A DNA stretch of 46,136 bases from an uncultured Anaerolineae bacterium (lineage in GTDB: Bacteria; Chloroflexota; Anaerolineae; SSC4; Amarolineaceae). The DNA lies in assembly GCA_964642445.1 (NCBI GenBank), contig CAZXQZ010000004.1, positions 1-46,136 of the forward strand. Reading direction: 5' to 3'. Shown in pieces: positions 1 through 28,240 of the stretch; within the stretch, counting starts at the first letter, position 1, and the number at the start of each line of letters is the position of its first letter. Under the pieces are notes generated by a model. That model was not told where the DNA came from. It searched no databases and saw only the letters and a list, made by a program, of their open reading frames with translations. The position numbers were made by a program, and so were the translations under genes.

Positions 1-3000
1 TCCCGGGGGAGTGGGCAAAACGCGGTTGCTGCGCGAGGCGGTGAAGCAGGCGCAGCAACAGAAGATGCTGACCACCGATATCATCGACCTGTACCACAGC
101 GACATCCACAGCAATTCGGGGATCGAGCGCGCAGTCATTGAAGGTCTGTGTGCCGGCGTGGACCCGGCTGTCATTGAGTTGATCCAGGACTCCTTCCAGG
201 CCTACGAATCTCTACGACGTGATTTCGATACATTAAGATCGAATACAAACGACATCCAGAGGATTGAAAACGCCCGGTCACAACTGCGCCCGGTTTTTGT
301 TGCATGTTACAACAACCTGACCGCAAAGTACCCGGTTCTTCTCGTGTTGGATACGGCCGAGTTGGTCCAGTTCGAGAGTGACATCATTCAACGCCTGTGT
401 CAGATAGAAAACGTGCCGGTCGAAGTCAAGGCGTGGTTGACCACTACACTACCACAGCTGCACAACAGCGTGATCTTGTTGGCCGGTCGTGGTCCTCGCC
501 AGGAAGTACCACACGATCCGCGCCGTCAATTATGGAATGACATCAAAAAGGCCCTCGCTGGCCTGGATCCATCCCATGTCCACTGGTTCGAGTTGGGTGA
601 GTTTGCGGAAGAGGACGGTGTTCGTTACTTTGATGCGGTTGCCGAGTTGATTCGAAATATGTGGACCCAGCATCCCCCGGGCACGTACAAAGACGATCTA
701 CAAAATGCCGTGGCTATGATTCAGGGAATTGAACCAGAAGATCGAATGGCTATCTGCCGAAGCCTCGGCGGACGTCCAATCCGCCTGGGTTTGTTCATAG
801 ACTTGTTGGCTGCCGGTGAGGACCTGACACCAGTGACTGCGGTTGGCGCACGATGGGACGAGACGATACAGGCAGCAATCATTGGACGGCTGACCAGGAT
901 CAGTCCTGACGTACCCTTACGTATCATGCTGGATTACCTGGCGGCGACGCGTCATGGATTGAATGCTGCTTTGCTGAATGTGCTGCGGCCAGAGTGGACC
1001 CTTGAGGAGTGCCAACAGCGTTTGAACCTGGCAAAAAAGCATAGTTTTGTCAAAACGCGCCCTCACACCGAGATGGTATTTCTGCACGACGAAATGTACG
1101 ACCTGTTGGATACGAGCATTGCACAGCCGCAGCATAGTCGATTTCGCACCTTCTATCAGAAGATTGCAGGATACTACGAAAACCTCATCAGCGAGCCTTC
1201 GCATTCTGATCCTCATGTCGATCAAGAAACGCTGCAAGTATTACAGGTTCATTATCGGCTGCTTGATGACCCAGCGCTCGGTTACGCAGCCTATGCGGGG
1301 TTTGACCAAGTAGCTATCGAAGGGTATGAGTTTGGCCATGACATGCGGCTGCGCGACGAAATCCTGCGCTTCTATGACAATAAGCACAACGAGACGATAG
1401 CCGACAACCGCGGTGTGCCGAGAACGGTTCTTGACTGCGACAGTGCCGTGCGCTGGGTTCAGCGGCATTTATCACGCGGCGAGACGCAGCGAGCGGCAGA
1501 GGTATCTGAGATTCTCCTGGCACACGGCCCCGACCCCTATCCTGCATTGCGTGCCAGGCAAGAGACAGTCCCGTATGAGCTGTCTGCTCAAGATGCAGCT
1601 GATGCCCGTCGCATCCTGTCCAGTGCCGGTCCATCCTTTTGGGCGCGGCTGCTGACATTCTACGGTGAAGCACTCCTACAGCTTGAAGCACCTTACGAAA
1701 AAACAAAGAGGGTGCTGGACACAGCCATCCAGCTTCTCGAAGATGAGAATGTGACTGACATACGCAGCATTCCGGGATCGGTGATGCCGCTGATCTTGCG
1801 GCATGCATATGCCAATCGATGGCACTTCAATCGGACCTACGAGCTTCCCGCACAGGCATCTGACCTTCAGCGAGTCGCAGAGGAATTGGCACAAATTCTA
1901 CAGTTTGGTCCATCACCTTACCCAGGACTTGTTGTCATTCGAAGCGGAACCAGCGATCGGCGATTACCTTTTGACATCGAAGAAGCGCGCCGCCTCTATG
2001 GTAATGTCTACACTCTTTTCTGGGCAGAGGTTCTGGTGGATTATGGCGAAAAGTTGGTGTATCTGGCGGTGCCCTTTGCTGGTACCGAAAGAGTTCTGCG
2101 TCATGCCATCGATCTCCTGAAAAACATGCCGGTAACGGATAGGTTTCCATCCGAGCGCCGCTTGTTGCGCCTTGGCGCTTCCTACAATCTCCTGGGGTAT
2201 CTAAACCGCACCCACGGGTTTCACGCCCAGGCGCGAGAAGAATATCAGCGCGCATTGGGCCAATACCCACAATCGGCCCAAGCGGAGCGAGCCACAACGC
2301 AGACCAATCTCGCCTATCTTCTCAGCCTGTTGGGTCTCAGCCGACAAGCCAGGACCAATGTCGAGGATGCCATTCAAATCCAAAGGGATCTGGGTAACCA
2401 AGAGGACGTCGCTTTGGGTTACAGCACGCTCGGACTGATCAACACGCGCGACGGGCACCCAGACTGGGGCGCCGAAAGAAGTCGAGAAGCGTTGCGCATC
2501 TCCCAGTCATTGAACTCACCTCGCGTCGAAGGCCTGTCTTTGTTAGGTCTGGCGTACGCATTGCGCCAGCAAGGTGAACATTGGAAACTTCAAGTCTGCA
2601 CAGCTGCGCAGGCCAAAACATTCTATGAAGAGAGCGCCAATTTACTCCGCCGTGCAGTGGCTATTTTCGAAAATGACGTCATCGAACCGAGCCGTCTGTG
2701 GGAAGCGTACAATGAGCTAGGCAGCGTGTACGGCGATCGGGGATGGCTGTATGCGACATCGGATGAAACAATCGATGAAAACCAGAAACAGATGGCTTTG
2801 CGCTTTTACCAGGAGTCGATTGTTCACCAACTCAACGCTGATAGAATTGCACGAGAACACGCTCTCCCGCTGCAGCGTATCGATTCCCACATCGACCTGG
2901 CACAAGTCTACGGAGACCGGAGTTTCTTGTTTGCATCGATCGGTCAACACACGAACGCATCGACAAATCGCGTCGAAGGCGAGAAGTTGTTGATGGCTGT

Positions 3001-3406
3001 GCGCACTGAATTGGCCCCGGAGAGTTCTCGTCTTATTCCTGGCACTGGATTTGCCGGACCGGGCCAACGCGGTGTTGCCCATTTGCTGCACCTGGGCAAA
3101 AGCCATTTGTGGCGCGGGGTGTGGGCTTTTCGTGACGTTGAGTATGAGCTCGTTCCTGATTCTGAAAAAGACCTGCGCATGGGACTGGCTACCCAAGAGC
3201 TCATCACGGCGGCAGCCTATTTCCAGCACTACTGGCGGACATCGCCTGACCTCGATCGCACTTTTGCGTATTTGGGACGCTTTCTCAAATTGTTCCAGGT
3301 GTCACCGGAATGGGCAAAAAAGCAAATCAGTGCTTTCAATCACCAATACCCGAACATCGACCTACCCGCCGTGCGTGAAGCGATTGAGGACATCATCGGT
3401 CAGTGA
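1..3406 (+). CDS. STAND-type P-loop NTPase with C-terminal TPR repeats; 5' end lies upstream of the window
   Basis: The frame is open from base 2. A Walker A motif (PGGVGKTRLL) sits at the window edge, so the N-terminal domain is missing. The C-terminal third has TPR-like repeats (NLAYLLSLLGL...ALGYSTLGLIN...GLSLLGLAYAL). The stop codon TGA 3404-3406 overlaps the GTG start of the next gene. Confidence 0.7.
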   Translation, partial: PGGVGKTRLLREAVKQAQQQKMLTTDIIDLYHSDIHSNSGIERAVIEGLCAGVDPAVIELIQDSFQAYESLRRDFDTLRSNTNDIQRIENARSQLRPVFVACYNNLTAKYPVLLVLDTAELVQFESDIIQRLCQIENVPVEVKAWLTTTLPQLHNSVILLAGRGPRQEVPHDPRRQLWNDIKKALAGLDPSHVHWFELGEFAEEDGVRYFDAVAELIRNMWTQHPPGTYKDDLQNAVAMIQGIEPEDRMAICRSLGGRPIRLGLFIDLLAAGEDLTPVTAVGARWDETIQAAIIGRLTRISPDVPLRIMLDYLAATRHGLNAALLNVLRPEWTLEECQQRLNLAKKHSFVKTRPHTEMVFLHDEMYDLLDTSIAQPQHSRFRTFYQKIAGYYENLISEPSHSDPHVDQETLQVLQVHYRLLDDPALGYAAYAGFDQVAIEGYEFGHDMRLRDEILRFYDNKHNETIADNRGVPRTVLDCDSAVRWVQRHLSRGETQRAAEVSEILLAHGPDPYPALRARQETVPYELSAQDAADARRILSSAGPSFWARLLTFYGEALLQLEAPYEKTKRVLDTAIQLLEDENVTDIRSIPGSVMPLILRHAYANRWHFNRTYELPAQASDLQRVAEELAQILQFGPSPYPGLVVIRSGTSDRRLPFDIEEARRLYGNVYTLFWAEVLVDYGEKLVYLAVPFAGTERVLRHAIDLLKNMPVTDRFPSERRLLRLGASYNLLGYLNRTHGFHAQAREEYQRALGQYPQSAQAERATTQTNLAYLLSLLGLSRQARTNVEDAIQIQRDLGNQEDVALGYSTLGLINTRDGHPDWGAERSREALRISQSLNSPRVEGLSLLGLAYALRQQGEHWKLQVCTAAQAKTFYEESANLLRRAVAIFENDVIEPSRLWEAYNELGSVYGDRGWLYATSDETIDENQKQMALRFYQESIVHQLNADRIAREHALPLQRIDSHIDLAQVYGDRSFLFASIGQHTNASTNRVEGEKLLMAVRTELAPESSRLIPGTGFAGPGQRGVAHLLHLGKSHLWRGVWAFRDVEYELVPDSEKDLRMGLATQELITAAAYFQHYWRTSPDLDRTFAYLGRFLKLFQVSPEWAKKQISAFNHQYPNIDLPAVREAIEDIIGQ

Positions 3407-3930
3407 TCTCTAACATTCACGCGGGTGCCGTAGCCTGTTGTTCCATTCGTCACGCCCTGCCAGCCGATGCCCCAACCATCGTGGCCGGCATCGATGCCGT
3501 CTGCGCCGAGGGCGGCGCCTTTGAAACGACGCGGTACGTTCCAACACCGGCCTGGGAAACGGTGCTGCACCACCCCGAAACAGTGCCCGACCACCTCCTG
3601 GTGGTTGCGGAGCACGACGGTTGTTTTGCCGGTGCCGGACGTTTGTTCCCGACCCCCACAGATTTTTTGTGCCATCACGTTACCGATTTGGGGATCTTCG
3701 TCGCCGCTGGTTTGCGGCGACGCGGTATTGGCACGCAACTGATGACCACGATGCTCGATTGGGCGACGCAGAAGGGGTTCGAGAAGGTCACGTTGAGCGC
3801 CTTCGCCAGCAATGCTGCCGCGCTGACCCTATTCGAACGTCTTGGCTTCGTCGAGGAAGGTCGCCGCCGGCGCCAGTTCAAAACCGGCACGACGTATACC
3901 GATGAAGTGTTCCTGTCACGTTTTCTGTGA
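3403..3930 (+). CDS. GNAT family N-acetyltransferase
   Basis: 175 aa with an acetyl-CoA binding motif (RRRGIGTQLMTTMLDWA) and the signature LGFVEEG near the C-terminus. The GTG start overlaps the upstream stop (GTGA). Its own stop overlaps the GTG at 3927 of the next ORF. Confidence 0.8.
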   Translation: MISNIHAGAVACCSIRHALPADAPTIVAGIDAVCAEGGAFETTRYVPTPAWETVLHHPETVPDHLLVVAEHDGCFAGAGRLFPTPTDFLCHHVTDLGIFVAAGLRRRGIGTQLMTTMLDWATQKGFEKVTLSAFASNAAALTLFERLGFVEEGRRRRQFKTGTTYTDEVFLSRFL

Positions 3931-3947
3931 TCCTTAAGGAGATCATC

Positions 3948-5450
3948 ATGCAGCTTCCAGACACTGCGGCCATCATACTCTCACCCTACGATAGTTCCCT
4001 GGGGTTCTCTCCTGGTCCAGAACTGGAAAAGGACTGCGCCTGCAGCACGCCGGACTTGTACACCCATACGCTGCCTGTGCAACCGTCAGGGCCCCGTGCC
4101 GACCGCCACTACCAGGCCCAGGCACTGTTCCAGCAACCCCTGCACACCAACTGGACCCTGCTCTGCAACCCGGCCGCCACCCACAGCCTGGCCGTGGTCA
4201 CGCCGCCGGTGCTCGACATCCTGGCCGCCTTCGCACAACCGCGTACCCTGTCCGACGGCATCCGGCACGCCGGCGCACCAGCTCACGGCCCGGCCACCGC
4301 CCACCGCCTGGTCGACCTGGGGCTGCTGCGCGTGCCCGACACGACGCCGGCCCTCCCCGCGCCAGACACCACCCTCACCGCCTGGTTACACGTGACCAAC
4401 GCCTGTAACCTGCGCTGCACCTACTGCTACGTCAACAAAACCGCCGACCGGATGGCGGCCGAAACCGGACGCCAGGCCGTCGATGCCATCCTGCGCACCG
4501 CACAAAACAATCACTTCCAACGGGTCAAAATCAAATACGCCGGCGGTGAGGCCACACTCGATTTTGGCCACGTTCTGGCCCTGCACGACTATGCCCGCCA
4601 GCAGGCCGCCCGGCATGATCTGACCCTCGACAGCGTCGTGCTCAGTAACGGCGTCGCCTGGAGCCAGCGCATGATCGCGGCCCTGCAGGCCCACGACCTG
4701 CGCCTGATGATCTCGCTCGACGGTATTGGCGCTGCACACGACGACCAGCGACCCTTTGCCAGCGGCCATGGCTCTTTCAGCCACGTGGTTCGTACACTCG
4801 ACCGCCTGGCCAGCGCCGGTGTCACGCCGACAATCTCGGTGACCATCACCGACAACAACCTGGCCACCCTGCCCGAAACTGTGGATTGGCTCCTCCAGCG
4901 GCAGCTGCCGTTCACGCTGAACTTCTACCGAGCCAACGACTGTGTGACCAGTCCCAGCGACCTCACCCTGCGCAACGACCAGGTTATCGCAGCGCTGTAC
5001 GCGGCCTTCGCCGTCATCGAAGCTAACCTGCCGCCCTTCAGCCTGTTAGATTGCCTGGCCGACCTGGCACAGCTCGATGCGGTGCACGATCGGCCCTGTG
5101 GCGCAGGGCAAAATTACCTGGTCATCGATCACAACGGCCACGTCGCACGCTGCCACATGGAGCTGGCACACCCCGTCACCGATATCACAGCCGCTGATCC
5201 ACTGCTTGCGCTGCGTGCACGCCCCACGGGCTGGCGCAACGGACCGGTCAGCGAAAAGACCAGCTGCCAGAGCTGCACCTGGCGCCACTGGTGCGCCGGC
5301 GGCTGCCCACTGCTGACTTATCGTGCCACGGGACGCTGGGACGTGCAGTCACCCTACTGCCAGGTCTATCAAGCCATCTTCCCCAAGATTCTGCGCCTGG
5401 AAGGGCTGCGGCTGCTGCACGATGCCCTCCCGTCCATGAAGCCGACCTGA
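3948..5450 (+). CDS. radical SAM / SPASM-domain enzyme with ~150-aa N-terminal extension
   Basis: A CxxxCxxC radical-SAM cluster motif (TNACNLRCTYCY) sits about 150 aa from the start. The C-terminal SPASM/twitch Cys pattern is CGAGQNYLVIDHNGHVARC...CQSCTWRHWCAGGCP. A strong SD (AAGGAG, 3936-3941) lies 6 nt before the ATG at 3948. An alternative GTG start is at 3927. Confidence 0.85.
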   Translation: MQLPDTAAIILSPYDSSLGFSPGPELEKDCACSTPDLYTHTLPVQPSGPRADRHYQAQALFQQPLHTNWTLLCNPAATHSLAVVTPPVLDILAAFAQPRTLSDGIRHAGAPAHGPATAHRLVDLGLLRVPDTTPALPAPDTTLTAWLHVTNACNLRCTYCYVNKTADRMAAETGRQAVDAILRTAQNNHFQRVKIKYAGGEATLDFGHVLALHDYARQQAARHDLTLDSVVLSNGVAWSQRMIAALQAHDLRLMISLDGIGAAHDDQRPFASGHGSFSHVVRTLDRLASAGVTPTISVTITDNNLATLPETVDWLLQRQLPFTLNFYRANDCVTSPSDLTLRNDQVIAALYAAFAVIEANLPPFSLLDCLADLAQLDAVHDRPCGAGQNYLVIDHNGHVARCHMELAHPVTDITAADPLLALRARPTGWRNGPVSEKTSCQSCTWRHWCAGGCPLLTYRATGRWDVQSPYCQVYQAIFPKILRLEGLRLLHDALPSMKPT

Positions 5451-5525
5451 GTGACAGTCATCGCAGTTTAGACAAGACGCCCCACACATTTCCCACCTTG
5501 CGGACGCACGTCGGCGAGCGCATTC

Positions 5526-5534
5526 TTATCCACT
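5526..5534 (+). promoter_or_regulatory. DnaA-box-like site TTATCCACT (8/9)
   Basis: Matches the consensus TTATCCACA at 8 of 9 positions. A second weaker site, TTATCCTCG, is at 5605-5613. Both lie in the 206-bp intergenic region upstream of the 5657 gene. Confidence 0.3.
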
Positions 5535-5656
5535 TTGTCACAAATGCCACACGGCTGTAACTGGTATGCCATGATGATGTTATGTCGTGCATACCTGAAT
5601 TGTGTTATCCTCGTGTCAGCCGTGCAGGTAACTCATTCAGAAAGGAGCAACGGTCG

Positions 5657-6595
5657 ATGCAAAACAACTACAGCTTCGGTCCGATTGTCGGATTCTTGAT
5701 CTTCGTCGTGCTTGGCACCGCGATCCTTACGGTGGGGGCCGCCGGGACTTACGGACCACAACAACAGGCCGTGGCAAACCGCATCAACGCCGAAGTCGAG
5801 TATCTCAGGGGCAAATATGCCCAAGAACTGGCGGCCAGTCAGGCGGAGATCAACGCGGCAATCGCCAACGCACCGGCCCTGGCGCAACTGGAGCTTGATC
5901 GCCAGGCGCAGGAGCTCGCACAGCAGAAACGAGACTTCGAGTTGAATTCGGGCATCAAAGAGTCCATACCCTACGGCATCCTTGCCCTGACGGTCGCGGC
6001 GGCTGTCATAGCTGCAGCCTACGCCGCTTCACGCACAACGGGCAGCATTGCAGTGGGTCACGTACCCGCCGAGTCAGCCAGTGGCGAACATCAGGCTCGA
6101 CAACCAGCCAACCCCCACCGGACACTGGAAGCAAGCACTCCGTCCGGTTTGCGGTCACGTCCCGCCACGGCCCGCCCTGCCGAGCAGCCACCCTCCGCTA
6201 ATGGCCACACCGCCTCGCGCATGCGTGCGTATCGGCAGATTCTCGAACGCGACCACGCCACAACCGAGCAGCTTGGCCAGCAAATGACAACCCAGCAAAA
6301 TCAGATCTGCGCGCTATCTGAACTGATCATCAGTGTACAGAGAGCCGTCGAACAGATCGCAACGACGATGCAGGCTCGTGATGATCTGCTCGTCACACAG
6401 ATAGAGGACATCCAGGCTGCACTCCACCAAATCGATGCAGTGCGCACCAGCGAACCGAAACTGATACAGAACAACGGCCAGGAACATGCAATCGACATTC
6501 GGGAAATCAGCCGGTCAAGTGCCAGTCACAACGGCACCCATTTGACAAAGGAGGCACCGGGGCAGCACCCATCTACCTGGCGCAAAGCCGCCTGA
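5657..6595 (+). CDS. hypothetical membrane protein with coiled-coil segments
   Basis: ATG follows an SD (AAAGGAG). Two hydrophobic helices are present (IVGFLIFVVLGTAILTVGAAG and ILALTVAAAVIAAAYAA). Heptad-like Ala/Gln/Glu-rich stretches occur. I recognise no known family. Confidence 0.55.
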   Translation: MQNNYSFGPIVGFLIFVVLGTAILTVGAAGTYGPQQQAVANRINAEVEYLRGKYAQELAASQAEINAAIANAPALAQLELDRQAQELAQQKRDFELNSGIKESIPYGILALTVAAAVIAAAYAASRTTGSIAVGHVPAESASGEHQARQPANPHRTLEASTPSGLRSRPATARPAEQPPSANGHTASRMRAYRQILERDHATTEQLGQQMTTQQNQICALSELIISVQRAVEQIATTMQARDDLLVTQIEDIQAALHQIDAVRTSEPKLIQNNGQEHAIDIREISRSSASHNGTHLTKEAPGQHPSTWRKAA

Positions 6596-6689
6596 AGCAC
6601 TCAGCAAAGGATAAAGCGCAGTCCGCACTGGCCCATGCGGGCTGTGCCGTTCTTCTGGATTGCAGCGCAGCCAGGGCGCTCTGATGGCA

Positions 6690-10329: not shown

Positions 10330-10516
10330 AGACTTGCCTCGTGAAGGTTCGTATCCCCCCGACAACCGAACCACAAACTCTGACGCTCCCAAGCGGGATC
10401 ACACCGTCGGAAGGACTGCTATAGTGTGCAGATAACTTTAACCCAATCCGAATATGCTGTCAAGTCATTTCGCTGGACGGCGCGTGCCTTTGTCCAATCG
10501 CCGGATATCGAGTAGA

Positions 10517-11767
10517 ATGCCCCTCAGTGCTCGACCCGGCGCCGGGCATGGATGTCAAAATTGGCCGCAGCGAGAAATCACGGTTGTGTCGGTTGCCCTA
10601 GTTCACGATTGGCTGAACCAAATCGGTGGCGCAGAGAATGTCCTGGAATCATTGGCCCGGATGAATCCCAGCGCACCCATTTACACCAGCATGTACTGGC
10701 CGGCACTGAATGCCCAGCGCCCGGCTTTTGCCGGCTGGGATATCCGCACCTCGTTCATGCAGCACCTGCCTGGGGTGCTGCGCCACCACCAATGGTACTT
10801 ACCGCTCTATCCCCTTGCGTTCGAGCAGTTCGACCTCAATGCCTACGAGCTGGTGGTGAGCAACAAGAGCGGTTTCTGCCACGGCGTGCTCACCGGACCG
10901 GAAACCTGCCACATCTGCTACTGCCTGACGCCCACCCGCTTCATCTGGAGCTTCGACAGTTACGCACAGCGCGAGGAAGGTGTCGGCCGCGCCCTGGGTA
11001 TCCTCCTGCGGCCTGTCATCAGTTATCTGCGCCTGTGGGACCGCCAGGCCGCGGACCGTGTCGATCACTTCATAGCCATCTCGCGCACCGTGCAGCAGCG
11101 TATCATCAAATACTACCGGCGCCAGAGCGAGATCATCTACCCACCGGTCGACACGGACCGCTTCGTGCCCAGCACGCGTGCGCCCGGCGACTATTTTCTG
11201 GCCGGGGGGCGCTTGATTCCGTACAAGCGGCTGGACCTGGCGGTACGGGCGTTCACCGAGCTGGGCCTGCCGCTCGTGGTGTACGGCGAGGGACGCGATG
11301 CCGCCAGCCTGAAGGCCGCTGCAGGACCCAACATCACTTTCCTTGGCCAGGTGTCCTGGGATCAGCTGGTCGATCTATTTCAGCACTGCCGCGCGTTCGT
11401 GTTTCCCGGCCTGGAGGATTTTGGCATTGCCCCAGTCGAGGCCCAGGCGACCGGCCGCCCCGTGGTTGCCTTCGCCGGCGGTGGATCGCTGGATACAGTC
11501 ATCGATGGCGTCACCGGGGTGCTGTTCCACGAACAGACCGCGGCTTCCCTGGTTGCCGCGGTTGAACGCTGTGCCGCAACATCTTGGGATTCACGTATGA
11601 TCCGGCAGCATGCCTTGCGTTTCAGCGAACAGCGCTTCTGCCGTGAGTTGGAGGATTATGTCGCCCAGCAGCTCGACCGTCATCGCGCAGAACGGCGTGC
11701 GGCCCGGCTGCCGCTGACCGTCGGTAACTCGGTTCCAGCGTCAGGCCATCTCGAGGGGGCTGAGTAA
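10517..11767 (+). CDS. glycosyltransferase family 4 (GT-B)
   Basis: N-terminal VALVHDWL motif. C-terminal EDFGIAPVEAQATGRPVVA, an E-x7-E-like motif. The start is uncertain, with candidates at 10454, 10517 and a GTG at 10586. Confidence 0.7.
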   Translation: MPLSARPGAGHGCQNWPQREITVVSVALVHDWLNQIGGAENVLESLARMNPSAPIYTSMYWPALNAQRPAFAGWDIRTSFMQHLPGVLRHHQWYLPLYPLAFEQFDLNAYELVVSNKSGFCHGVLTGPETCHICYCLTPTRFIWSFDSYAQREEGVGRALGILLRPVISYLRLWDRQAADRVDHFIAISRTVQQRIIKYYRRQSEIIYPPVDTDRFVPSTRAPGDYFLAGGRLIPYKRLDLAVRAFTELGLPLVVYGEGRDAASLKAAAGPNITFLGQVSWDQLVDLFQHCRAFVFPGLEDFGIAPVEAQATGRPVVAFAGGGSLDTVIDGVTGVLFHEQTAASLVAAVERCAATSWDSRMIRQHALRFSEQRFCRELEDYVAQQLDRHRAERRAARLPLTVGNSVPASGHLEGAE

Positions 11768-11773
11768 CCACCT

Positions 11774-12478
11774 ATGGAACTTCGACACTACTGGCACATC
11801 ATACGCCGCCGTTGGTGGCTTCCGCTGGGCCTGGTCCTGCTCGTTGGTTTGTTCAGCCTGGTTAGCCAGCGCCCCTGGGTATCCCCGCCTACGAACTATA
11901 CGGCAACCCTGCGCTTCAACGTGGGCCTGCAGCCCGAGCCACGCACGGCCGATTATTACACCTACGACCGCTATTACACCTGGCTGGGTTCGGAATATTT
12001 GATCGATGACCTGAGTGAGATCGTCAAAGGCAGCGCGTTTGCCGAAGCCGTCACTGAACGGCTGGCCGGCAGTGGGTTGGCCGTGCCACCTGGCGCGATC
12101 CAGGGCAGCACCCAGGCCGGCAAACTGCACCGTATCCTGACTGTGAGCACCAGCTGGGGCAACCTGGACGAACTGCAGCGCATGACACAGGCGATCAGCG
12201 AAACGATTCAATCGGACCTGTTGCGCTTTTACGGCGCGCTGCTGACGACCACCCCCGGGTCTGTCCCCATCGAGGCCATCCTGATCGATGGTCCCCACGT
12301 CGGGGCCAACAGCCCCGGCCTGCGGGAACGCCTGGACCTGCCGATTCGTCTGATCCTTGCCTTGCTGCTGGGGATCGGCTTGACGTTCTTGTTCGACTAC
12401 CTGGACCCACACGTGCGCGGACGGACCGACCTGGAGGCGATGGGGTTCACCGTCATTGGCGAAATCCCCCGGCGTTAG
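11774..12478 (+). CDS. polysaccharide chain-length determinant, CapA/Wzz-like (paralog 1)
   Basis: An N-terminal transmembrane helix follows MELRHYWHIIRRR. A C-terminal transmembrane helix precedes the cytoplasmic tail. This is the Firmicute CapA/YwqC topology. Confidence 0.6.
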   Translation: MELRHYWHIIRRRWWLPLGLVLLVGLFSLVSQRPWVSPPTNYTATLRFNVGLQPEPRTADYYTYDRYYTWLGSEYLIDDLSEIVKGSAFAEAVTERLAGSGLAVPPGAIQGSTQAGKLHRILTVSTSWGNLDELQRMTQAISETIQSDLLRFYGALLTTTPGSVPIEAILIDGPHVGANSPGLRERLDLPIRLILALLLGIGLTFLFDYLDPHVRGRTDLEAMGFTVIGEIPRR

Positions 12479-12526
12479 GCACTGTCGCCAAACCGCTGCC
12501 CTGTCCAGCGCGCAGCAACCGAGCGC

Positions 12527-12554
12527 TTGTATTTTGGCCGGTGTATGGTAGAAT
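12527..12554 (+). promoter_or_regulatory. sigma70-like promoter (TTGTAT-16-TAGAAT, extended TG)
   Basis: -35 TTGTAT at 12527-12532 and -10 TGgTAGAAT at 12549-12554. It is followed by an SD (AGAGGGAG) and the ATG at 12584. Confidence 0.35.
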
Positions 12555-12583
12555 GACCGGTCTAGAGGGAGTAGACGTATCGT

Positions 12584-13246
12584 ATGGAACTACGAGATTA
12601 CCTGCGCATCCTGCGCAAACGCGGCTGGATCATCATTGCCGTCGCGTTGGTGGCGGCGCTGGCAGCTTACGCATTCAGCCTGACCCAGACCAAAATCTAC
12701 CGCGCCACCGCCAGGGTGAGCGTGGTGCCAGGCACACCCGACTGGGGTCTGGGCAACACCGCCAAGGACCTGCTGCGCAATTTTGTGATCAACATCGACA
12801 CGCACGACACAGCACAAAAGGTGATCGACCGCGCGCAGCTCGACATGACCACCTATGACTTGCTGGGGCGCACAGAAGTCAGCTCCGATGCGTCCAATTT
12901 TACGCTGCAGATCGATGCCCGCGATGAACGACCCGAAGTGGCGAAACAGGTCGCTTTGACCATGGCCGATATCTTCGTCGAAGAACGCACCGCCTACTAC
13001 AACCAGCAAGACAAACGCGATCGTATCGAAGTCAAAATCGTCGATCACGTGATCGATGCCCCGCTGTTTCGGCCCAACCCAGCCCTGAACGCCGTGGCCG
13101 GCCTGGTGCTGGGAGCGGTTTTGGGGGGCATCATCGTCTTTGTGCTCGAATGGCTGCAGGCAGACAAACTGCGCACACCCCAGGCCGTCGAACGTTACCT
13201 CGGCCTTCCCGTGCTCGGCGCCATCCCATCGGCCACGGAGCGCTGA
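12584..13246 (+). CDS. polysaccharide chain-length determinant, CapA/Wzz-like (paralog 2)
   Basis: Begins MELRDYLRILRKRGW with a transmembrane helix, and is clearly similar to the upstream paralog. A C-terminal transmembrane helix is present (LVLGAVLGGIIVFVL). Confidence 0.65.
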   Translation: MELRDYLRILRKRGWIIIAVALVAALAAYAFSLTQTKIYRATARVSVVPGTPDWGLGNTAKDLLRNFVINIDTHDTAQKVIDRAQLDMTTYDLLGRTEVSSDASNFTLQIDARDERPEVAKQVALTMADIFVEERTAYYNQQDKRDRIEVKIVDHVIDAPLFRPNPALNAVAGLVLGAVLGGIIVFVLEWLQADKLRTPQAVERYLGLPVLGAIPSATER

Positions 13247-13249
13247 AGC

Positions 13250-13942
13250 ATGCCAATCCAAAATCCAAAATCCAAAATCCAAAATCAAACAGTGTTGGTG
13301 ACCGTGGCTGATCCGCGCTCGCCGATTGCCGAAGCCTACCGCAGTCTGCGCACCAACCTCAGTTTTGCCAACCTGGACCAGACGCTGCATACGATCCTGG
13401 TGACATCGGCCGGGCCTGAGGAAGGTAAATCGACCGTGCTGGCCAACCTGGCCGTGGTCGAGGCGCAGGCCGGGCACCGCGTCATCATCGTCGATGCCGA
13501 TTTGCGCCGCCCAAGACAGCACGAACTGTTTGGCCTGGCCAACGGCGAGGGGCTGACCACGATGCTGGCCGAGGAAAACGGTCTGCAGCAGCCACCCCTG
13601 CAGCCGACCCCCATCGAGGGTCTGCAGGTCCTGACCAGCGGCCCACAACCACCGCTGCCGGCCGAGATGCTGGCGTCGGAGCGCATGAAGCATGCCATTG
13701 CGGCCCTGGCGGCACGGGCCGACCTGGTCCTGTTCGATGCGCCGCCGGTCGTCGCTGTGACGGACGCGGCCATCCTGGCCCCACAGGTCGATGGTGTGCT
13801 TTTGATCATCAACGCCGATCGCACACGGCGCGAACACGCACAGCGTGCGCAGCAGCTGCTGGCCAAGGTCAATGCACGGATCATCGGCAGTGTGCTCAAT
13901 GACGTCACGCCCGACAGCGGCCTGCGTGGCTACTACAAGTAG
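13250..13942 (+). CDS. BY-kinase (CapB/CpsD-type tyrosine protein kinase)
   Basis: Walker A SAGPEEGKST, Walker A' VIIVDADLRRP and Walker B LVLFDAPP. It lies in CapA-CapB order 3 nt after the upstream stop. Confidence 0.8.
   Translation: MPIQNPKSKIQNQTVLVTVADPRSPIAEAYRSLRTNLSFANLDQTLHTILVTSAGPEEGKSTVLANLAVVEAQAGHRVIIVDADLRRPRQHELFGLANGEGLTTMLAEENGLQQPPLQPTPIEGLQVLTSGPQPPLPAEMLASERMKHAIAALAARADLVLFDAPPVVAVTDAAILAPQVDGVLLIINADRTRREHAQRAQQLLAKVNARIIGSVLNDVTPDSGLRGYYK
13254..13281 (+). repeat. heptanucleotide tandem repeat (CCAAAAT)x4 inside the first codons of the BY-kinase
   Basis: A direct read gives CCAAAATCCAAAATCCAAAATCCAAAAT, coding PIQNPKSKIQNQ. A 7-nt unit shifts the frame on a copy-number change. 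Confidence 0.9.
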
Positions 13943-13954
13943 AGGATACAGCGT

Positions 13955-15028
13955 GTGAAAGGTCTGATTCTGAGCGGTGGCAAAGGCTCACGCCTCTATC
14001 CACTGACTTACACCAATGCGAAACAGCTCGTACCCGTGGCCAACAAGCCCGTTTTGTTTCGGGTCATCGAGGCCATCCGCGCCGCCGGCATCGACGACAT
14101 TGGGATCGTCGTCGGTACCGATGACAATGCACGCCAGATACGTGAGGCCGTAGGCAGCGGTCAACGCTGGGGCGTACACGTCCATTTCATCGAACAAGAA
14201 GCCCCGCTCGGCCTGGCCCATGCGGTCAAAATCAGCCAGGATTTTCTGCGGGATGACCGCTTCGTAATGTTCCTGGGTGACAACGTGATCCAGGGCGGGA
14301 TCAGCCCTCTGATTGCGCAGTTTGCCAGCAGCGCCTGGAACAGCCAGGTCGTCCTGACACCCGTGCCGGAACCACAGCACTTCGGCGTGGCCGAGCTAGA
14401 CAATGACGAGCGTATCATTCGGCTGGTCGAAAAGCCGCGCAACCCCCGCTCCAACCTGGCCCTGGTAGGCATCTACATGTTCGACCACCACGTCTTCGAG
14501 GCGGTGCAGCACATCCAGCCCTCGTGGCGCGGGGAGCTCGAGATCACCGATGCTATCCAATGGCTCATCGATCATCACTATAACGTTCATCCCTACATCC
14601 ATCGCGGTTGGTGGATCGATACAGGCAAACCGATCGATATGCTGGAAGCCAACAGCCGCGTGCTGGATGAAATCGAACATTCGGTGGCCGGGTACATCGA
14701 CCGCGATTCGCAGATTGGCGGCAAAGTCACGATCGAGCCGGGTGCCGAAATCATCAACAGCGTCATCCGTGGCCCGGCCATCATTGGCGAAGAGACGCGC
14801 ATCATCAACAGCTACATCGGCCCGTTCACCTCGATCTTCCACCACTGCGTCATCGAAGACAGCGAAATCGAGCACAGCATCGTCTTGGAGAACAGCCGGA
14901 TCGTGGGCATCCCCAACCGCATCGAAGACAGCCTGATCGGGCGTTTTGTCGAAGTGACACGCTCGCCTATCAAACCCAAGGCCATCAAGATGACGCTGGG
15001 TGATCACAGCCGTGTGGGCATCCTGTAG
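13955..15028 (+). CDS. glucose-1-phosphate thymidylyltransferase, long form (nucleotidyltransferase plus left-handed beta-helix C-domain)
   Basis: N-terminal GxGxRL sugar-nucleotidyltransferase motif (LILSGGKGSRLYPLT). C-terminal hexapeptide-repeat region (IEDSEIEHSIVLENSRIVGIPNRIEDSLIG). GTG start. Confidence 0.75.
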   Translation: MKGLILSGGKGSRLYPLTYTNAKQLVPVANKPVLFRVIEAIRAAGIDDIGIVVGTDDNARQIREAVGSGQRWGVHVHFIEQEAPLGLAHAVKISQDFLRDDRFVMFLGDNVIQGGISPLIAQFASSAWNSQVVLTPVPEPQHFGVAELDNDERIIRLVEKPRNPRSNLALVGIYMFDHHVFEAVQHIQPSWRGELEITDAIQWLIDHHYNVHPYIHRGWWIDTGKPIDMLEANSRVLDEIEHSVAGYIDRDSQIGGKVTIEPGAEIINSVIRGPAIIGEETRIINSYIGPFTSIFHHCVIEDSEIEHSIVLENSRIVGIPNRIEDSLIGRFVEVTRSPIKPKAIKMTLGDHSRVGIL

Positions 15029-15046
15029 CTGGGAAAGGTTCGACCG

Positions 15047-16066
15047 ATGCGCAACTACCTGATCACCGGTGGTGCCGGTTTCATTGGCTCCAATTTCGTA
15101 CGCTACCTGCTCGATAAATACCGCGACTTCTCGGTGGTGGTCTATGACAAACTGACCTATGCCGGCAACCTTGACAATCTGCTCGATGTCGCCGGGGACC
15201 CGCGTTACGCGTTCGTACAGGGCGACATCTGCGACGCCGGCGCGGTCGCCGCGGCGATTACCGGCCATCATATCGATACCATCGTCAACTTCGCCGCCGA
15301 ATCGCACGTCGATCGTTCGATCTTGAACCCCGACGCATTTGTTCAGACCGACGTGTACGGGACCTACGTGCTGCTGGAGGCGGCGCGCAAATTTGGTTTG
15401 GAACGTTACCACCAAATCAGCACCGATGAAGTCTACGGCCACGTGCACGAGGGGTCCTCCGTGGAAAGTGATCCGCTGGCGCCGCGTTCACCCTACGCGG
15501 CCAGCAAAGCCAGCGCCGACCTGATGGTCAACGCCTACTACATCACCTACGGCCTGCCAGTCACCATTACCCGCGGCTCCAACAACATTGGGCCCTACCA
15601 GTACCCGGAAAAGGTGATTCCCCTCTTCGTCACCAATGCCATCGACGACCGCCCGCTGCCGCTGTACGGTGATGGGCTGCAGATGCGCGATTACCAGTAT
15701 GTGCTGGATCACTGCGAAGGGATCGATGCGGTCGTGCAGCGTGGGACGCTCGGTGAAACGTACAACATCGGCACGGGCTCAGAGATGCGCAATATCGACA
15801 TGGCGCACCTGGTGCTGGACACCCTGGGCAAACCGTACAGCCTCATCCAGCCCGTGCAGGACCGGCCGGGCCACGACCGGCGCTATTCGTTGGACGTCAG
15901 CAAGCTGGAAGCGTTGGGCTGGCAATCGCGCCACACCTGCGCCGAGGCCATCGTCAAGACCGTGCGCTGGTACCAGGAGAATGCCTGGTGGTGGCGCAAG
16001 ATCAAGTCGGGCGAGCATTACCAGGCGTTCTACCAACGCTGGTATGCCGGGCGCGAAGTCGTTTGA
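15047..16066 (+). CDS. rfbB: dTDP-glucose 4,6-dehydratase
   Basis: N-terminal NAD Rossmann motif TGGAGFIGS. The catalytic YxxxK is in PYAASKAS. Full-length SDR-extended family, 339 aa. Confidence 0.85.
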   Translation: MRNYLITGGAGFIGSNFVRYLLDKYRDFSVVVYDKLTYAGNLDNLLDVAGDPRYAFVQGDICDAGAVAAAITGHHIDTIVNFAAESHVDRSILNPDAFVQTDVYGTYVLLEAARKFGLERYHQISTDEVYGHVHEGSSVESDPLAPRSPYAASKASADLMVNAYYITYGLPVTITRGSNNIGPYQYPEKVIPLFVTNAIDDRPLPLYGDGLQMRDYQYVLDHCEGIDAVVQRGTLGETYNIGTGSEMRNIDMAHLVLDTLGKPYSLIQPVQDRPGHDRRYSLDVSKLEALGWQSRHTCAEAIVKTVRWYQENAWWWRKIKSGEHYQAFYQRWYAGREVV

Positions 16067-18141: not shown

Positions 18142-20163
18142 CTAGACGGTGCGGTACACCAGCACACCGGCTTTTCCGGCGGCTGCATACACCATATTGC
18201 CGGCGACAGTGACGTCCCATATGCTGCCTACGGCCGGGTGCCCCACGACCAGGGATGGCGCTTGCGGATTCTGCACGTTGATCATCTGCAGACCACCCGC
18301 ACGGTCAGCGACGTAGGCGATATTGCCCACCACTGTGACGGCCTGGGCCAGGTTGGGCGTGTTGTACAGGCCGCGGAATACCGGGGCCGCCCGATTGGCA
18401 ATATCGACGATCTCCAGCCCGCGAAAACCATCCGCCACGTAGGCCACATCATTGCGCACGGCGCTGGCATAGGTGTAACCCGCAGTGAGGTGGCGGCTGA
18501 TAAGTCGTGGTTGGGTGGTGTTGCTGACGTCGAGAATGATCATGCCTCCGCTCTCACCGGCTGCCAGGTAGGCGTACGGCTCCACCACCGTGACGCTCTC
18601 CGTATTATCGGGGGCGAAATAATTGGCGCGCCATACCGGTGCCGCCGGGTTCGTGACATTGATCAGCACCAGCTTGCGACCGTACCCGTTGGTTACGTAG
18701 GCAATGTTCGATGACACGACCACATCGCGCGCATAACCGGTGGCGGGATGACTGCCGCGCCACATTGGGGATGCCGGGTTGCTGACATCGAAGATTTGCA
18801 GCCCCCCGGTCCAGTCGGCGATGTACGCAAGGTTGTTCTGTACGTAGAGACGATAGGCGTAACCCGGCGTGTCTGCCGCCCCGCGCAGTGCGGGGTTGAT
18901 CGGATTGCTGATATCGATGACGTGCAGACCGTTGCTGCCATTGGCGATGTAGGCGGAGTTGCCAAGCACGCGGATACCGTGCGCATCACCGATGGTTGCG
19001 TAACTACCACGCAGCGCGGGCGAGGCCGGGTCGCTGATGTCGATGGTGCGCAGTCCGCCGAAACCATCTGCCAGCAGTGCCAGGTTGTCCAGCGCGGCCA
19101 CTTGCCGGGCGCTGCCGGGGGTGTTCAGCGTCCCTCGTAATACCGGTACCTCCGGGGTGGAGATGTCAAGAACGCGCAAACCGCCATTGTCACCATTGGC
19201 GACCAGGGCCAGACTGGCAGCCAGGGTGATGCCCACGGCATTGGGGACTGGGGCACTGCCGCGCAGCACTGGCCCTGCCGGGTTGGAGACATCCACCACC
19301 TGCAGGCCGGCATAGCCGCTGGCCAGGTAGGCCAGGGTGCCAGACAGCGCGACACTCTGCACCACGGCACCCGTGTAGGACCCCAGCAGCTGTGGGTTGC
19401 CCGGCTGGCTCACATCCACAATCTGCAAGCCCCCCAGCAGCCCATCGGCAACGTAGGCGCGACCCTCGGCTACTTGCACGGCAAAACAGTCCCCCGGCGT
19501 ATCCAGTTGACCAACCAACAACGGAAACTCGGGTATGAGGGCGTTGATGATGTGCAAACCACTGCCAGGTCCATCAGCCAGGTATACTATCCCCGCATTC
19601 ACGGTGACCCCTACCGCCTGGCCAGGGGTGTCGTAACTGCCAAGCAGACGCAGATTCTCTGGAATGCTGATATCGATCGTCTGCAGCCCACCCTCGGACC
19701 CGGCTGCCACATAGGCCACGCTGCCTTCGACAGCAATGCCGCTGACCAGGTCGGGGAGAATGGGGCTGCGCCCCAGCAGCCGGGGGGTGGCGGGGTTGGA
19801 CACGTCGAAAACGACCAGGCGCGGCCCCATGCCGGCATAGATGCGGTTGCCCATCACGGCGACGGCGTCGATGCTGCCGCCGATTTGCGCCACAGGTCCC
19901 GTGGGTGGGGACCGGTATAGACCGGGGAAGTACAAGCGCGAGGCCTGGACCGTACCGGTTTCCGGTGTCGGGTCATCGTCGCTGGCGCCGATCAAGTGCG
20001 GCGCCGCCTCGGTCGGCGCGGGCATGGCCATGTAGCGGGCATGCGCGTATGCAGGTGCGGCATCAATCACAGGCGCGCCGCGCCCAATCAGCAAGCACAT
20101 GAGGCTGGCCGCCAGTAGACGGCCAGCACGGTGGACACGTGCGCGTCGGGTGCAACGTTTCAT
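18142..20163 (-). CDS. secreted LVIVD-repeat beta-propeller protein
   Basis: An N-terminal signal peptide. It carries more than ten repeats of the form GLxI/VxDVSNPxxPxL.GSY, which is the LVIVD repeat. Confidence 0.75.
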   Translation of the reverse strand: MKRCTRRARVHRAGRLLAASLMCLLIGRGAPVIDAAPAYAHARYMAMPAPTEAAPHLIGASDDDPTPETGTVQASRLYFPGLYRSPPTGPVAQIGGSIDAVAVMGNRIYAGMGPRLVVFDVSNPATPRLLGRSPILPDLVSGIAVEGSVAYVAAGSEGGLQTIDISIPENLRLLGSYDTPGQAVGVTVNAGIVYLADGPGSGLHIINALIPEFPLLVGQLDTPGDCFAVQVAEGRAYVADGLLGGLQIVDVSQPGNPQLLGSYTGAVVQSVALSGTLAYLASGYAGLQVVDVSNPAGPVLRGSAPVPNAVGITLAASLALVANGDNGGLRVLDISTPEVPVLRGTLNTPGSARQVAALDNLALLADGFGGLRTIDISDPASPALRGSYATIGDAHGIRVLGNSAYIANGSNGLHVIDISNPINPALRGAADTPGYAYRLYVQNNLAYIADWTGGLQIFDVSNPASPMWRGSHPATGYARDVVVSSNIAYVTNGYGRKLVLINVTNPAAPVWRANYFAPDNTESVTVVEPYAYLAAGESGGMIILDVSNTTQPRLISRHLTAGYTYASAVRNDVAYVADGFRGLEIVDIANRAAPVFRGLYNTPNLAQAVTVVGNIAYVADRAGGLQMINVQNPQAPSLVVGHPAVGSIWDVTVAGNMVYAAAGKAGVLVYRTV

Positions 20164-20170
20164 CGGACGG

Positions 20171-28217: not shown

Positions 28218-28240
28218 GCGTACCGGTCCGTTTGCCGGGC

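Follow-up and report, generated by a model that had tools for sequence, protein, structure and literature searches.

A stretch of 46,136 nucleotides (nt) from an uncultured Anaerolineae bacterium of the Amarolineaceae (contig CAZXQZ010000004.1 of assembly GCA_964642445.1, forward strand; hereafter, the window) opens with three adjoining genes, for a large P-loop nucleoside triphosphatase with tetratricopeptide repeats (NTPase-TPR), a small GNAT acetyltransferase and a radical S-adenosylmethionine (rSAM) enzyme with a SPASM auxiliary-cluster domain. Their arrangement raises the question of what such an enzyme modifies and why it is encoded beside an NTPase with a sensor-like repeat array. The initial annotation of this DNA identified the three protein types correctly but missed the key feature of the locus, which is a substrate-like tail fused to the rSAM enzyme. 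Judged by its sequence, this tail is interpreted as a precursor of a peptide synthesized on ribosomes and modified after translation (RiPP), made up of a leader-like strand and a core, that is fused to the N-terminus of its own maturase. The locus is read, with a probability of roughly 0.55, as a coupled peptide-processing module whose constant core consists of the precursor-fused rSAM/SPASM maturase, with a domain resembling the RiPP recognition element (RRE), and the NTPase-TPR protein, which is of the STAND-like type.

The rSAM/SPASM enzyme and its N-terminal tail

The enzyme is encoded at 3948..5450 on the + strand and comprises 500 amino acids (aa). It matches the Pfam family Radical_SAM with 51.5 bits (cut-off 29.5), and the description of its SPASM domain as complete is borne out: the radical-SAM cluster motif CNLRCTYC (C153, C157 and C160; 4404..4427), the SAM-binding motif GGE (G199, G200 and E201) and seven cysteines of the SPASM auxiliary-cluster region (C384, C402, C440, C443, C449, C453 and C471; 5097..5360) are all invariant in 98 homologs. 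More than 100 distinct homologs with identities of 46% or higher come from Chloroflexota, cyanobacteria and actinobacteria. No curated model of NCBIfam reaches its cut-off with this protein. The best match is to the PapB family of ranthipeptide maturases (NF047865; 148 bits, cut-off 340), followed by the nif11 maturase (128 bits, cut-off 519), QhpD (TIGR03906; 123.5 bits, cut-off 453) and the SCIFF maturase (100.6 bits, cut-off 425), and the dynobactin maturase DynA is also among the best curated families. The alignments to PapB and QhpD extend through the SPASM region. The anaerobic sulfatase-maturating enzyme anSME, which had been named as a possible well-known identity, does not account for the protein: its model (TIGR03942, cut-off 349) gives 87 bits, and the conserved motif of the tail is D-C-A-C-[PAS] with no conserved arginine, unlike the C/S-x-P/A-x-R target of anSME. 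The genes for quinohemoprotein amine dehydrogenase (qhpA and qhpC) are not found near the rSAM gene.

An AlphaFold model based on the 98-sequence alignment (mean predicted local distance difference test, pLDDT, 91; predicted template-modelling score, pTM, 0.91) places a beta-bridge in the tail, then a beta-beta-beta-alpha-alpha-alpha unit, then the rSAM and SPASM domains. The beta-beta-beta-alpha-alpha-alpha unit (4107..4316) is RRE-like, with strands at residues 54-84 and helices at residues 86-123, and Foldseek aligns the model over 462 columns to CteB, the SCIFF thioether synthase, including the N-terminal domain of that protein; an RRE has a PqqD-like fold with three strands and three helices, and none of the RRE models in Pfam and NCBIfam matched. 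CteB is the closest solved structure by both sequence and fold (fold E 4e-20). The enzyme is of the peptide-maturase type and lies outside every curated family.

The extent of the tail depends on the position of the start codon, which is most likely the ATG at 3948, because a Shine-Dalgarno sequence AAGGAG (3936..3941) lies 6 nt on its 5' side and the public gene call for the identical protein (P0001) is the 500-aa form that begins there. A GTGA at 3927-3930, formerly taken as an overlap of stop and start codons, is present and in frame with the rSAM gene, its GTG at 3927 overlapping the GNAT stop codon, but the junction between the two genes is most likely a 17-nt gap. The other overlap of this kind, at 3403-3406 between the NTPase and GNAT genes, holds.

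The tail itself occupies residues 1-50 (3948..4097) and consists of a hydrophobic strand, AAIILSPYD (residues 7-15), and then a core-like motif, E-K-D-C-A-C (residues 27-32; 4026..4043), in which the conservation of C30, A31 and C32 among the 98 homologs is 90% or more. The approximately 50 residues that precede the RRE-like unit vary in length and sequence throughout the family, except for the strand (four hydrophobic residues, any residue, alanine, any residue, aspartate, one hydrophobic residue) and the motif E-x-[DN]-C-A-C-[PAS], whose acidic residues are conserved as well as its cysteines. Of 120 homologs, 101 have a C-x-C sequence ahead of the rSAM domain, 81 of them one copy and 20 of them two; the other 19 include some truncated gene calls, some proteins with CGAC or with three single-cysteine E-S-D-C repeats, and a few that are tailless. 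The copy number of the motif thus ranges from 0 to 3, and shows no link to the number of NTPase-TPR paralogs (two motifs and two paralogs at locus L093, one and two at L104, two and one at L026). In six-frame translations of about 600 kb, [DN]CAC was found at the N-terminus of the rSAM enzyme in nearly every locus of the family, across phyla, with few stray matches elsewhere. In some lineages the tails hold three or four cysteines, as in CDCAC, or CDCDGGDCAC in Nostoc. The model assigns the beta-bridge to residues 10-11, with a pLDDT of 85 for residues 11-20 and of 61-69 for residues 21-50, the motif included.

At three loci the tail and the enzyme are separate, and these split forms are the decisive observation. 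The rSAM enzymes of L095/L096, L030 and L029 are tailless, and directly upstream of each is a small open reading frame (ORF) of 35-61 aa that has its own ribosome-binding site and ends in a motif of the tail type: ETDSDCACE at L095/L096, CQDDCACENNN at L030 and GQCDACGNDNNLE at L029, each followed by the stop codon. L095/L096, which was found by a metagenome scan with an alignment of three GNAT orthologs (those of the window, L090 and L093), encodes in order a P-loop protein (445 aa), an NTPase-TPR protein (988 aa), a GNAT, a 61-aa ORF (MSKSIPDQRQQPHLLERLDFSLFDADLHTSPRVIVVLDRQQPRANFLSEVEIETDSDCACE) and an rSAM/SPASM enzyme (415 aa). Its NTPase-TPR and GNAT are approximately 35% and 48% identical, respectively, to the window proteins; the 61-aa ORF (4813-4998), served by an AGGAG site of its own, starts with an ATG that overlaps the GNAT stop codon, and the rSAM gene is at 5009-6256. 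The rSAM enzyme of this locus, whose best model is MftC (105 bits), has no RRE and belongs to a different rSAM subfamily. L030 and L029 are simple two-gene cassettes of a peptide and an rSAM enzyme, without any NTPase; at L030 the enzyme is a member of the family at 39% identity and is preceded by the peptide MKLSDAQVITSETIADVEEIQITQLNITTKKINQGSKLYCQDDCACENNN, encoded at nt 5729-5880, and at L029 the peptide is MNFKNAQIINDKKIKADKKILYGQCDACGNDNNLE. Because the tailless enzymes have a separate upstream gene that ends in the motif, the motif behaves, as far as sequence can tell, like the core at the C-terminus of a precursor of the RiPP type. Most lineages are interpreted as having this precursor, leader strand included, fused to the N-terminal end of the maturase. 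Neither the tail nor the stand-alone peptides matched a model in NCBIfam.

Two further loci of Chloroflexota (L025, 9869-11074, and L033, 9914-10432) encode a Cys-x-Cys segment (SRCDCAP in the former; ECAC...RCDCAY in the latter) directly before the rSAM core, with no RRE-like domain between them. These may represent a third architecture, or a problem of assembly or gene calling.

Partner genes and neighbourhood

The NTPase-TPR gene (2..3406, + strand, stop codon TGA at 3404-3406) is cut at its 5' end by the edge of the window, which retains 1134 aa, and its reading frame opens, as first reported, with the Walker A sequence PGGVGKT (nt 2-22). G3, G5, K6 and T7 of the P-loop GGVGKT (5..22) and D117, T118 and E120 of the Walker B strand VLLVLDTAE (335..361) are invariant in 75 homologs. 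Because Walker A, the Walker B strand (four hydrophobic residues and DTAE) and an LLAGR motif are conserved among the homologs, the family looks catalytically competent. Pfam recognizes the domain weakly as AAA_16 or AAA_22, with 18 bits for AAA_16 against a cut-off of 32.6, a score that the homolog P0121 reaches (32.6 bits). A search that scored 8000 candidates gave 160 homologs at E <= 1e-5. Of the 120 listed, most have lengths of 980-1100 aa, and most carry precomputed matches to AAA_16 and TPR families.

Comparison with full-length homologs changes the expected shape of this protein in two ways. The first two residues in the window align to residues 36-57 of homologs of 900-1180 aa, and only about 38-61 residues, which form a helix and the first strand of the NTPase fold, precede the GPGGxGKT loop in 20 aligned homologs. 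For this reason the additional N-terminal domain that had been expected beyond the window edge is not predicted to exist; what the window protein appears to lack is about 40-60 residues. Its length of more than 1130 aa is real, but is due in part to a helical unit of about 120 aa that has been duplicated in tandem within the protein (1493..2239; residues 498-621 and 626-746; 36% identity and E 4e-18 by self-BLAST); the duplication makes the protein about 120 aa longer than its relatives. Homologs of about 1040 aa do not have the duplication, and their alignment to the window protein has a gap at residues 541-699. Residues 584-714 are the sole low-confidence region of the AlphaFold model (overall pLDDT 85.9).

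The C-terminal TPR repeats were also correctly recognized. A long array of helical repeats at residues 717-1132 (2150..3397) is modelled as helix pairs with pLDDT above 90, and TPR_12 scores 27.9 bits, just below its cut-off. The array is a putative peptide-binding sensor: the top matches in a fold search are the peptide-binding TPR domains of LGN/Pins. The only match over the whole length is a STAND-TPR crystal structure, 6mfv_A (E 8e-6, 925 columns), with low TM scores of 0.26 and 0.40. No DNA-binding domain was found in the window protein or in its full-length homologs by Pfam, alignment or model, so that an ordinary transcriptional regulator of the AfsR/MalT type, which had been raised as an alternative identity, does not fit; in related loci the OmpR-type winged helix-turn-helix domain (wHTH; Trans_reg_C) resides on a separate P-loop protein. 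In STAND NTPases a P-loop domain with Walker A and Walker B motifs is followed by helical and winged-helix modules and a repeat sensor at the C-terminus; the window protein, which combines a P-loop with TPRs and has no DNA-binding domain, is STAND-like.

The pairing of this protein with the rSAM enzyme recurs at 28 of the 36 non-redundant loci that were collected by a genome scan, exact-protein look-ups and a metagenome scan, several of them from related Nostoc genomes, so that not all 36 are independent. The NTPase-TPR gene is directly upstream of the rSAM gene and on the same strand in 27 loci, and the two are convergent in Roseiflexus castenholzii. The paired loci span Chloroflexota, Nostoc, Vecturithrix and others. 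Among the other eight loci, the available upstream sequence is shorter than 1 kb in two, a truncated TPR protein is encoded upstream in one, and two are the peptide and rSAM cassettes. The genes are at present annotated only as 'radical SAM protein', 'ATP-binding protein' or 'tetratricopeptide repeat protein'.

Farther upstream, most loci encode more P-loop proteins, with two to four paralogous NTPases per locus. These include a paralog of the NTPase domain of approximately 450-550 aa, and one or two of them carry a C-terminal Trans_reg_C domain. The window holds the 3' half of this larger conserved locus. Several of the neighbours are of types found in conflict systems. L090 encodes an NTPase with effector-associated domain (EAD) 1 and a P-loop protein with Trans_reg_C; the Nostoc loci encode Trypco1, a trypsin-EAD9 protein and an EAD9-NTPase, EAD9 being present on both the trypsin and the NTPase; and L010 encodes a protein with a caspase-like motif. 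Modules of EAD adaptors and effectors are a signature of NTP-dependent conflict systems, in which paired effector-associated domains link an NTPase to an effector within the locus (Kaur et al. 2020, PMC7159879). PADLOC, run on the NTPase, the GNAT, the rSAM enzyme and ten proteins encoded nearby in related loci, made no system-level match. Its matches were limited to a generic rSAM-core similarity to pVip models (E 1.8e-13), a similarity of a trypsin domain to LmuA (E 3e-6) and stray matches at E >= 0.004, two of them (TRIP13 and mad8; E about 0.004-0.007) for the Nostoc NTPase-TPR; the window NTPase, its closest full-length homolog, the GNAT and the upstream NTPases of L090 matched nothing.

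Two other neighbours may be recorded here. L093 encodes, divergently beside the system (1625-3925, - strand), a single 766-aa protein in which a KAP-family P-loop NTPase is fused to a domain of the formylglycine-generating enzyme (FGE-sulfatase) type. FGE-type domains act on cysteine in Cys-x-Pro-x-Arg motifs, which makes their presence beside a peptide system with a cysteine motif curious. Directly after the rSAM gene of L013 (11438-12007) is a gene for a 189-aa protein that begins LFLSSPGDVADAR and may resemble the DUF4062 module often fused to STAND and conflict proteins.

The GNAT gene (3403..3930, + strand, 175 aa) begins with the GTG at 3403 that overlaps the NTPase stop codon. Its product is an acetyltransferase of this superfamily (Acetyltransf_1, 66.4 bits against a cut-off of 20.7, E 3.5e-18), as first annotated, and no NCBIfam equivalog is reached. 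Its best curated similarities, all below the cut-offs, are to N-acetyltransferases of the ArsN1/phosphinothricin type (ArsN1a, 55 bits against 170) and to RimI, because of which a role in N-acetylating the peptide, or in neutralizing a product with a free amine, would fit. The gene is present in only five of the 36 loci. Orthologous GNATs with 47-74% identity occur at L090-92, L093/94, L104 (between two NTPase-TPR paralogs) and L095/96, always within the NTPase-TPR/rSAM system. Since the orthologs are found only inside the system, but in so few of its loci, the GNAT is a dedicated yet dispensable accessory outside the conserved core. The proposal that the three genes form a functional unit thus holds for the NTPase-TPR and rSAM pair, and for the trio in the five separate lineages where it recurs, and not for the GNAT as a general component. 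The possibility that the GNAT is unique to the window was ruled out by the orthologs in four more lineages, which were found by look-ups of NTPase homologs and by the metagenome scan.

In L088, a relative with 81% identity, only a relic of the GNAT C-terminus is present between the NTPase and rSAM genes, and in L089 (75%) the GNAT is gone. The spacer of about 100 nt in L088 (600-705) encodes ...DEVFRASFL before a stop codon, where the window GNAT ends with ...DEVFLSRFL, and is, to judge from this resemblance, what remains after the GNAT gene was recently deleted.

In the window, positions 1-6650 hold four genes, all on the + strand. The fourth (5657..6595, with a likely ATG start at 5657 behind AAAGGAG, and a gene call at the same start in L001) encodes a membrane/coiled-coil protein of about 312 aa, in which two predicted transmembrane segments flank a coiled coil rich in glutamine and alanine and which ends in a long low-complexity tail. 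An ortholog with 47% identity is found in L088 and a similar protein in L005; beyond these closest relatives, no such protein follows the rSAM gene in more distant loci. The gene may be the last of the operon, and a terminator-like hairpin with a 12-bp stem (6616..6647) lies 21 nt past its stop codon. The genes beyond the hairpin are unrelated housekeeping and envelope genes: an M23 peptidase, an AI-2E transporter and a dehydrogenase of the Iso_dh (isocitrate/isopropylmalate) family, then glycosyltransferases, Wzz, sugar-nucleotide (NTP_transferase/dehydratase) enzymes and SelB. Envelope polysaccharide genes occupy 10454-16066 and 26922-29395, and specify GT4 glycosyltransferases (one with a weak match of 30 bits to the Pfam family 'GT4-conflict', PF20706), a Wzz-like protein with a ParA/MinD-type ATPase, and NTP_transferase/dehydratase enzymes of the RmlA/RmlB type. 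On the - strand, 18142-21997 encodes two large adjoining proteins that contain LVIVD beta-propeller repeats (296 bits) and a CARDB domain and that are probably located at the surface. The NTPase gene (1-3400) has a G+C content of about 54%, the rSAM gene (4000-5000) of up to 66%, and most of the window of 58-68%; the two genes are tightly linked and yet strongly different in composition.

Proposed function and alternative readings

If the tail is the substrate of the enzyme that carries it, the RRE-like domain would bind the leader-like strand, either in cis or across a dimer, and the core would enter the active site, where 5'-deoxyadenosyl-radical chemistry could cross-link the cysteine thiols to neighbouring aspartate or glutamate side chains or to backbone carbons. 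The expected products, by analogy with the nearest relatives, would be thioethers of the ranthionine or sactionine type. PapB, QhpD and CteB all make cysteine thioethers, and PapB links cysteine to aspartate or glutamate in Cys-Xn-Asp motifs with n = 0-6 (PMC9413430); from these precedents, the tail would probably be cross-linked by thioethers between each cysteine and the acidic residue three positions before it (E27-x-x-C30 and D29-x-x-C32). In the subset of lineages that includes the window, the dedicated GNAT may acetylate the peptide or neutralize the released product. The TPR array of the NTPase may bind the tail or the released peptide, as suggested by the gene linkage and the precedent of FxSxx peptides and AP-ATPase-TPR proteins, and the NTPase could then serve as a nucleotide-dependent switch that connects the peptide with the NTPases encoded farther upstream, on which wHTH domains for DNA binding or EAD adaptors are present and, in some genomes, trypsin or caspase effectors.

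Several observations weigh against this interpretation. The pLDDT at the tail motif is only about 60-70. A fused core would lie between leader and enzyme, which is unusual for RiPPs, and a minority of the family members do not have the motif. Tails with four cysteines, such as CDCDGGDCAC of Nostoc, are also consistent with binding of a metal or cluster. The enzyme scores far below the cut-off of every curated model of a thioether synthase, and its reaction could therefore be another one. The core locus contains no conserved leader protease and no transporter or exporter, and the presence of extra NTPases upstream of the window is inferred from L090, the closest relative in which that part of the locus is available and whose upstream genes encode a P-loop NTPase of about 500 aa, the Trans_reg_C P-loop protein and the EAD1-NTPase.

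The alternative with most in its favour is an ordinary RiPP natural-product cluster, in which the NTPase-TPR and Trans_reg_C P-loop proteins would be pathway-specific regulators (a 'split AfsR/SARP-LAL'), the GNAT would serve in tailoring or self-resistance, and the peptide would be cleaved and exported as an antibiotic or signal. GNATs are common tailoring and immunity enzymes of RiPP pathways, and that of the window is nearest to N-acetyltransferases of the ArsN1/phosphinothricin type and to RimI. The recurrence of Trans_reg_C proteins in the loci, the weak similarity of the TPR region to AfsR and to the TPR protein of the Haa RiPP system, and the two cassettes at L029 and L030 that manage with a peptide and an rSAM enzyme alone all suit such a cluster. 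However, the NTPase-TPR has no DNA-binding domain with which to act as a regulator, two to four paralogous NTPases together with EAD, trypsin/Trypco1 and caspase-like proteins mark conflict systems, and the protease and transporter that would release and export a peptide were not seen as conserved genes; this alternative is plausible in outline and unlikely on balance.

It is rather improbable that the cysteines of the tail form a structural or regulatory metal site, in which case the enzyme's true substrate would be some other peptide or protein, perhaps the NTPase-TPR. The motif could in that event supply a missing ligand to auxiliary cluster I, bind zinc or copper, or gate the enzyme by means of a redox-active disulfide between the two cysteines of Cys-x-Cys. 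In CteB, seven SPASM cysteines leave one auxiliary cluster with an open coordination site, and the SPASM region of the present family likewise has only seven invariant cysteines; the motif remains tethered to the enzyme in most members, and the tails of some lineages have three or four cysteines. Against a metal site are a copy number of 0-3 in a linker of variable length and lower model confidence, the version with single-cysteine E-S-D-C repeats, acidic residues as conserved as the cysteines, and the location of the motif at the C-terminus of separate peptides of 35-61 aa beside tailless rSAM enzymes, one of which is of a different rSAM subfamily.

An Avs-like antiphage STAND system (the initial annotation had likened the architecture of the NTPase to Avs-like ATPases), in which the NTPase-TPR would sense a phage protein and the rSAM enzyme would be an effector such as a viperin-like nucleotide modifier, is very improbable: the STAND architecture with a TPR sensor, the conflict-type neighbourhood and the generic similarity to pVip would suit it, but PADLOC found nothing for the NTPase, the GNAT or the L090 upstream NTPases and only stray matches for other neighbours, Avs4 ranks 50 in the fold search of the NTPase (TM about 0.09), the NTPase has no N-terminal effector domain, and the rSAM enzyme, with its RRE-like and SPASM domains, groups with peptide maturases and not viperins, while a scan of IMG/VR, which says little either way, found no relatives.

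The favoured interpretation, a coupled peptide-processing module built on a precursor-fused maturase, can be extended to a self-priming maturase, although this extension is speculative and doubtful. The enzyme would cross-link its own tail, and the tail, either tethered or freed by trypsin- or caspase-type peptidases of the locus, would be the ligand of the TPR sensor; rSAM activity, and with it the status of SAM, Fe-S clusters and redox, would thereby be converted into an on/off signal for a multi-NTPase immune or cell-fate system in filamentous bacteria. If so, this would be a protein-borne, enzyme-encoded peptide messenger of a kind undescribed for STAND systems. Should the tail be a true substrate, the family would be a large one with the precursor built into the rSAM maturase, its split and fused forms showing the relationship between the two arrangements, and it would offer RiPP enzymology a ready single-polypeptide system and a new core motif of cysteine and acidic residues. 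The near-obligate pairing with a STAND-like NTPase-TPR protein carries the connection of peptide processing with STAND proteins beyond the actinobacterial FxSxx systems into other phyla, and provides a concrete candidate for the ligand of a bacterial TPR-STAND sensor.

Comparison with known systems

The family, the DCAC-type core and the fusion of a precursor to an rSAM maturase are all undescribed in the literature surveyed, coverage of which was incomplete, so that this is weak evidence of novelty. The combination of protein types is not unprecedented, contrary to what was first supposed, because the FxSxx system has an rSAM/SPASM enzyme with a STAND/TPR protein and the Haa system adds a GNAT; the window locus nevertheless falls outside the definitions of both.

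The FxSxx-COOH system (the peptide FxsA, the rSAM/SPASM enzyme FxsB, an HExxH peptidase and the AP-ATPase/TPR protein FxsT; Haft, Kaur et al. 2020) couples an rSAM/SPASM maturase to a STAND-type NTPase with C-terminal TPRs, as here, and the set of rSAM-SPASM enzyme, peptide and AP-ATPase-TPR is known from actinobacterial conflict systems (Kaur et al. 2020, PMC7159879). Both systems are set among NTP-dependent conflict genes with EAD adaptors and peptidase effectors, both are enriched in filamentous or multicellular bacteria, and both have a short peptide motif, which is C-terminal in the split forms described above. In contrast, the window rSAM enzyme scores 70 bits against the FxsB cut-off of 370 (TIGR04269), and the HExxH peptidase, vWA-MoxR pair and TIR of the FxSxx system are missing; neither an FxSxx-COOH peptide nor an HExxH protein is encoded at any of the 36 loci. 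The motif is E-x-D-C-A-C, the peptide is usually fused to the maturase, and the NTPase is of the AAA_16 type with its P-loop about 40-60 residues from the N-terminus.

The Haa system of triceptide cyclophanes (the peptide HaaA, HaaB, the GNAT HaaN and the TPR protein HaaT), of which the rSAM/SPASM enzyme HaaB has been characterized (PMC11499958), is the only curated system found with the same three protein types. The window proteins, however, score 19.5 bits for HaaT (NF041717; cut-off 1125), 23.8 bits for HaaN (NF041716; cut-off 250) and 76.5 bits for the related cyclophane synthase YhhB (cut-off 445). The core here is made up of cysteine and acidic residues and not of His/aromatic-X-X, and the precursor is fused to the enzyme.

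The thioether maturases PapB, QhpD and CteB (PDB 5wgg and 5why) are the best sequence and structural matches of the rSAM enzyme, with which they share the order of an RRE or RRE-like domain, rSAM and SPASM and, if the tail is the substrate, substrates rich in cysteine and acidic residues. QhpD, which makes Cys-Asp/Glu links in the QhpC subunit, shows that enzymes of this sort are not confined to free natural products and can modify the subunit of a protein. The motif order differs, being acidic-x-x-Cys here and Cys-X3-Asp for PapB, and the present enzymes differ further in having the putative substrate within the enzyme polypeptide and in their linkage to NTPases. Mycofactocin biosynthesis (the peptide MftA, the RRE protein MftB, and the rSAM/SPASM enzyme MftC) resembles the split variant of L095, which likewise comprises a short peptide with reactive C-terminal residues and an rSAM enzyme without an RRE; but the L095 enzyme scores 105 bits, and the window enzyme 55 bits, against the MftC cut-off of 265, the L095 peptide ends with DCACE and not GVY, and no mftD, mftE or mftF genes accompany it. 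The window locus resembles the FxsB/FxsT- and Haa-type peptide-processing systems, belongs to no named one, and differs from both in its core motif, its fused precursor and its partner NTPases.

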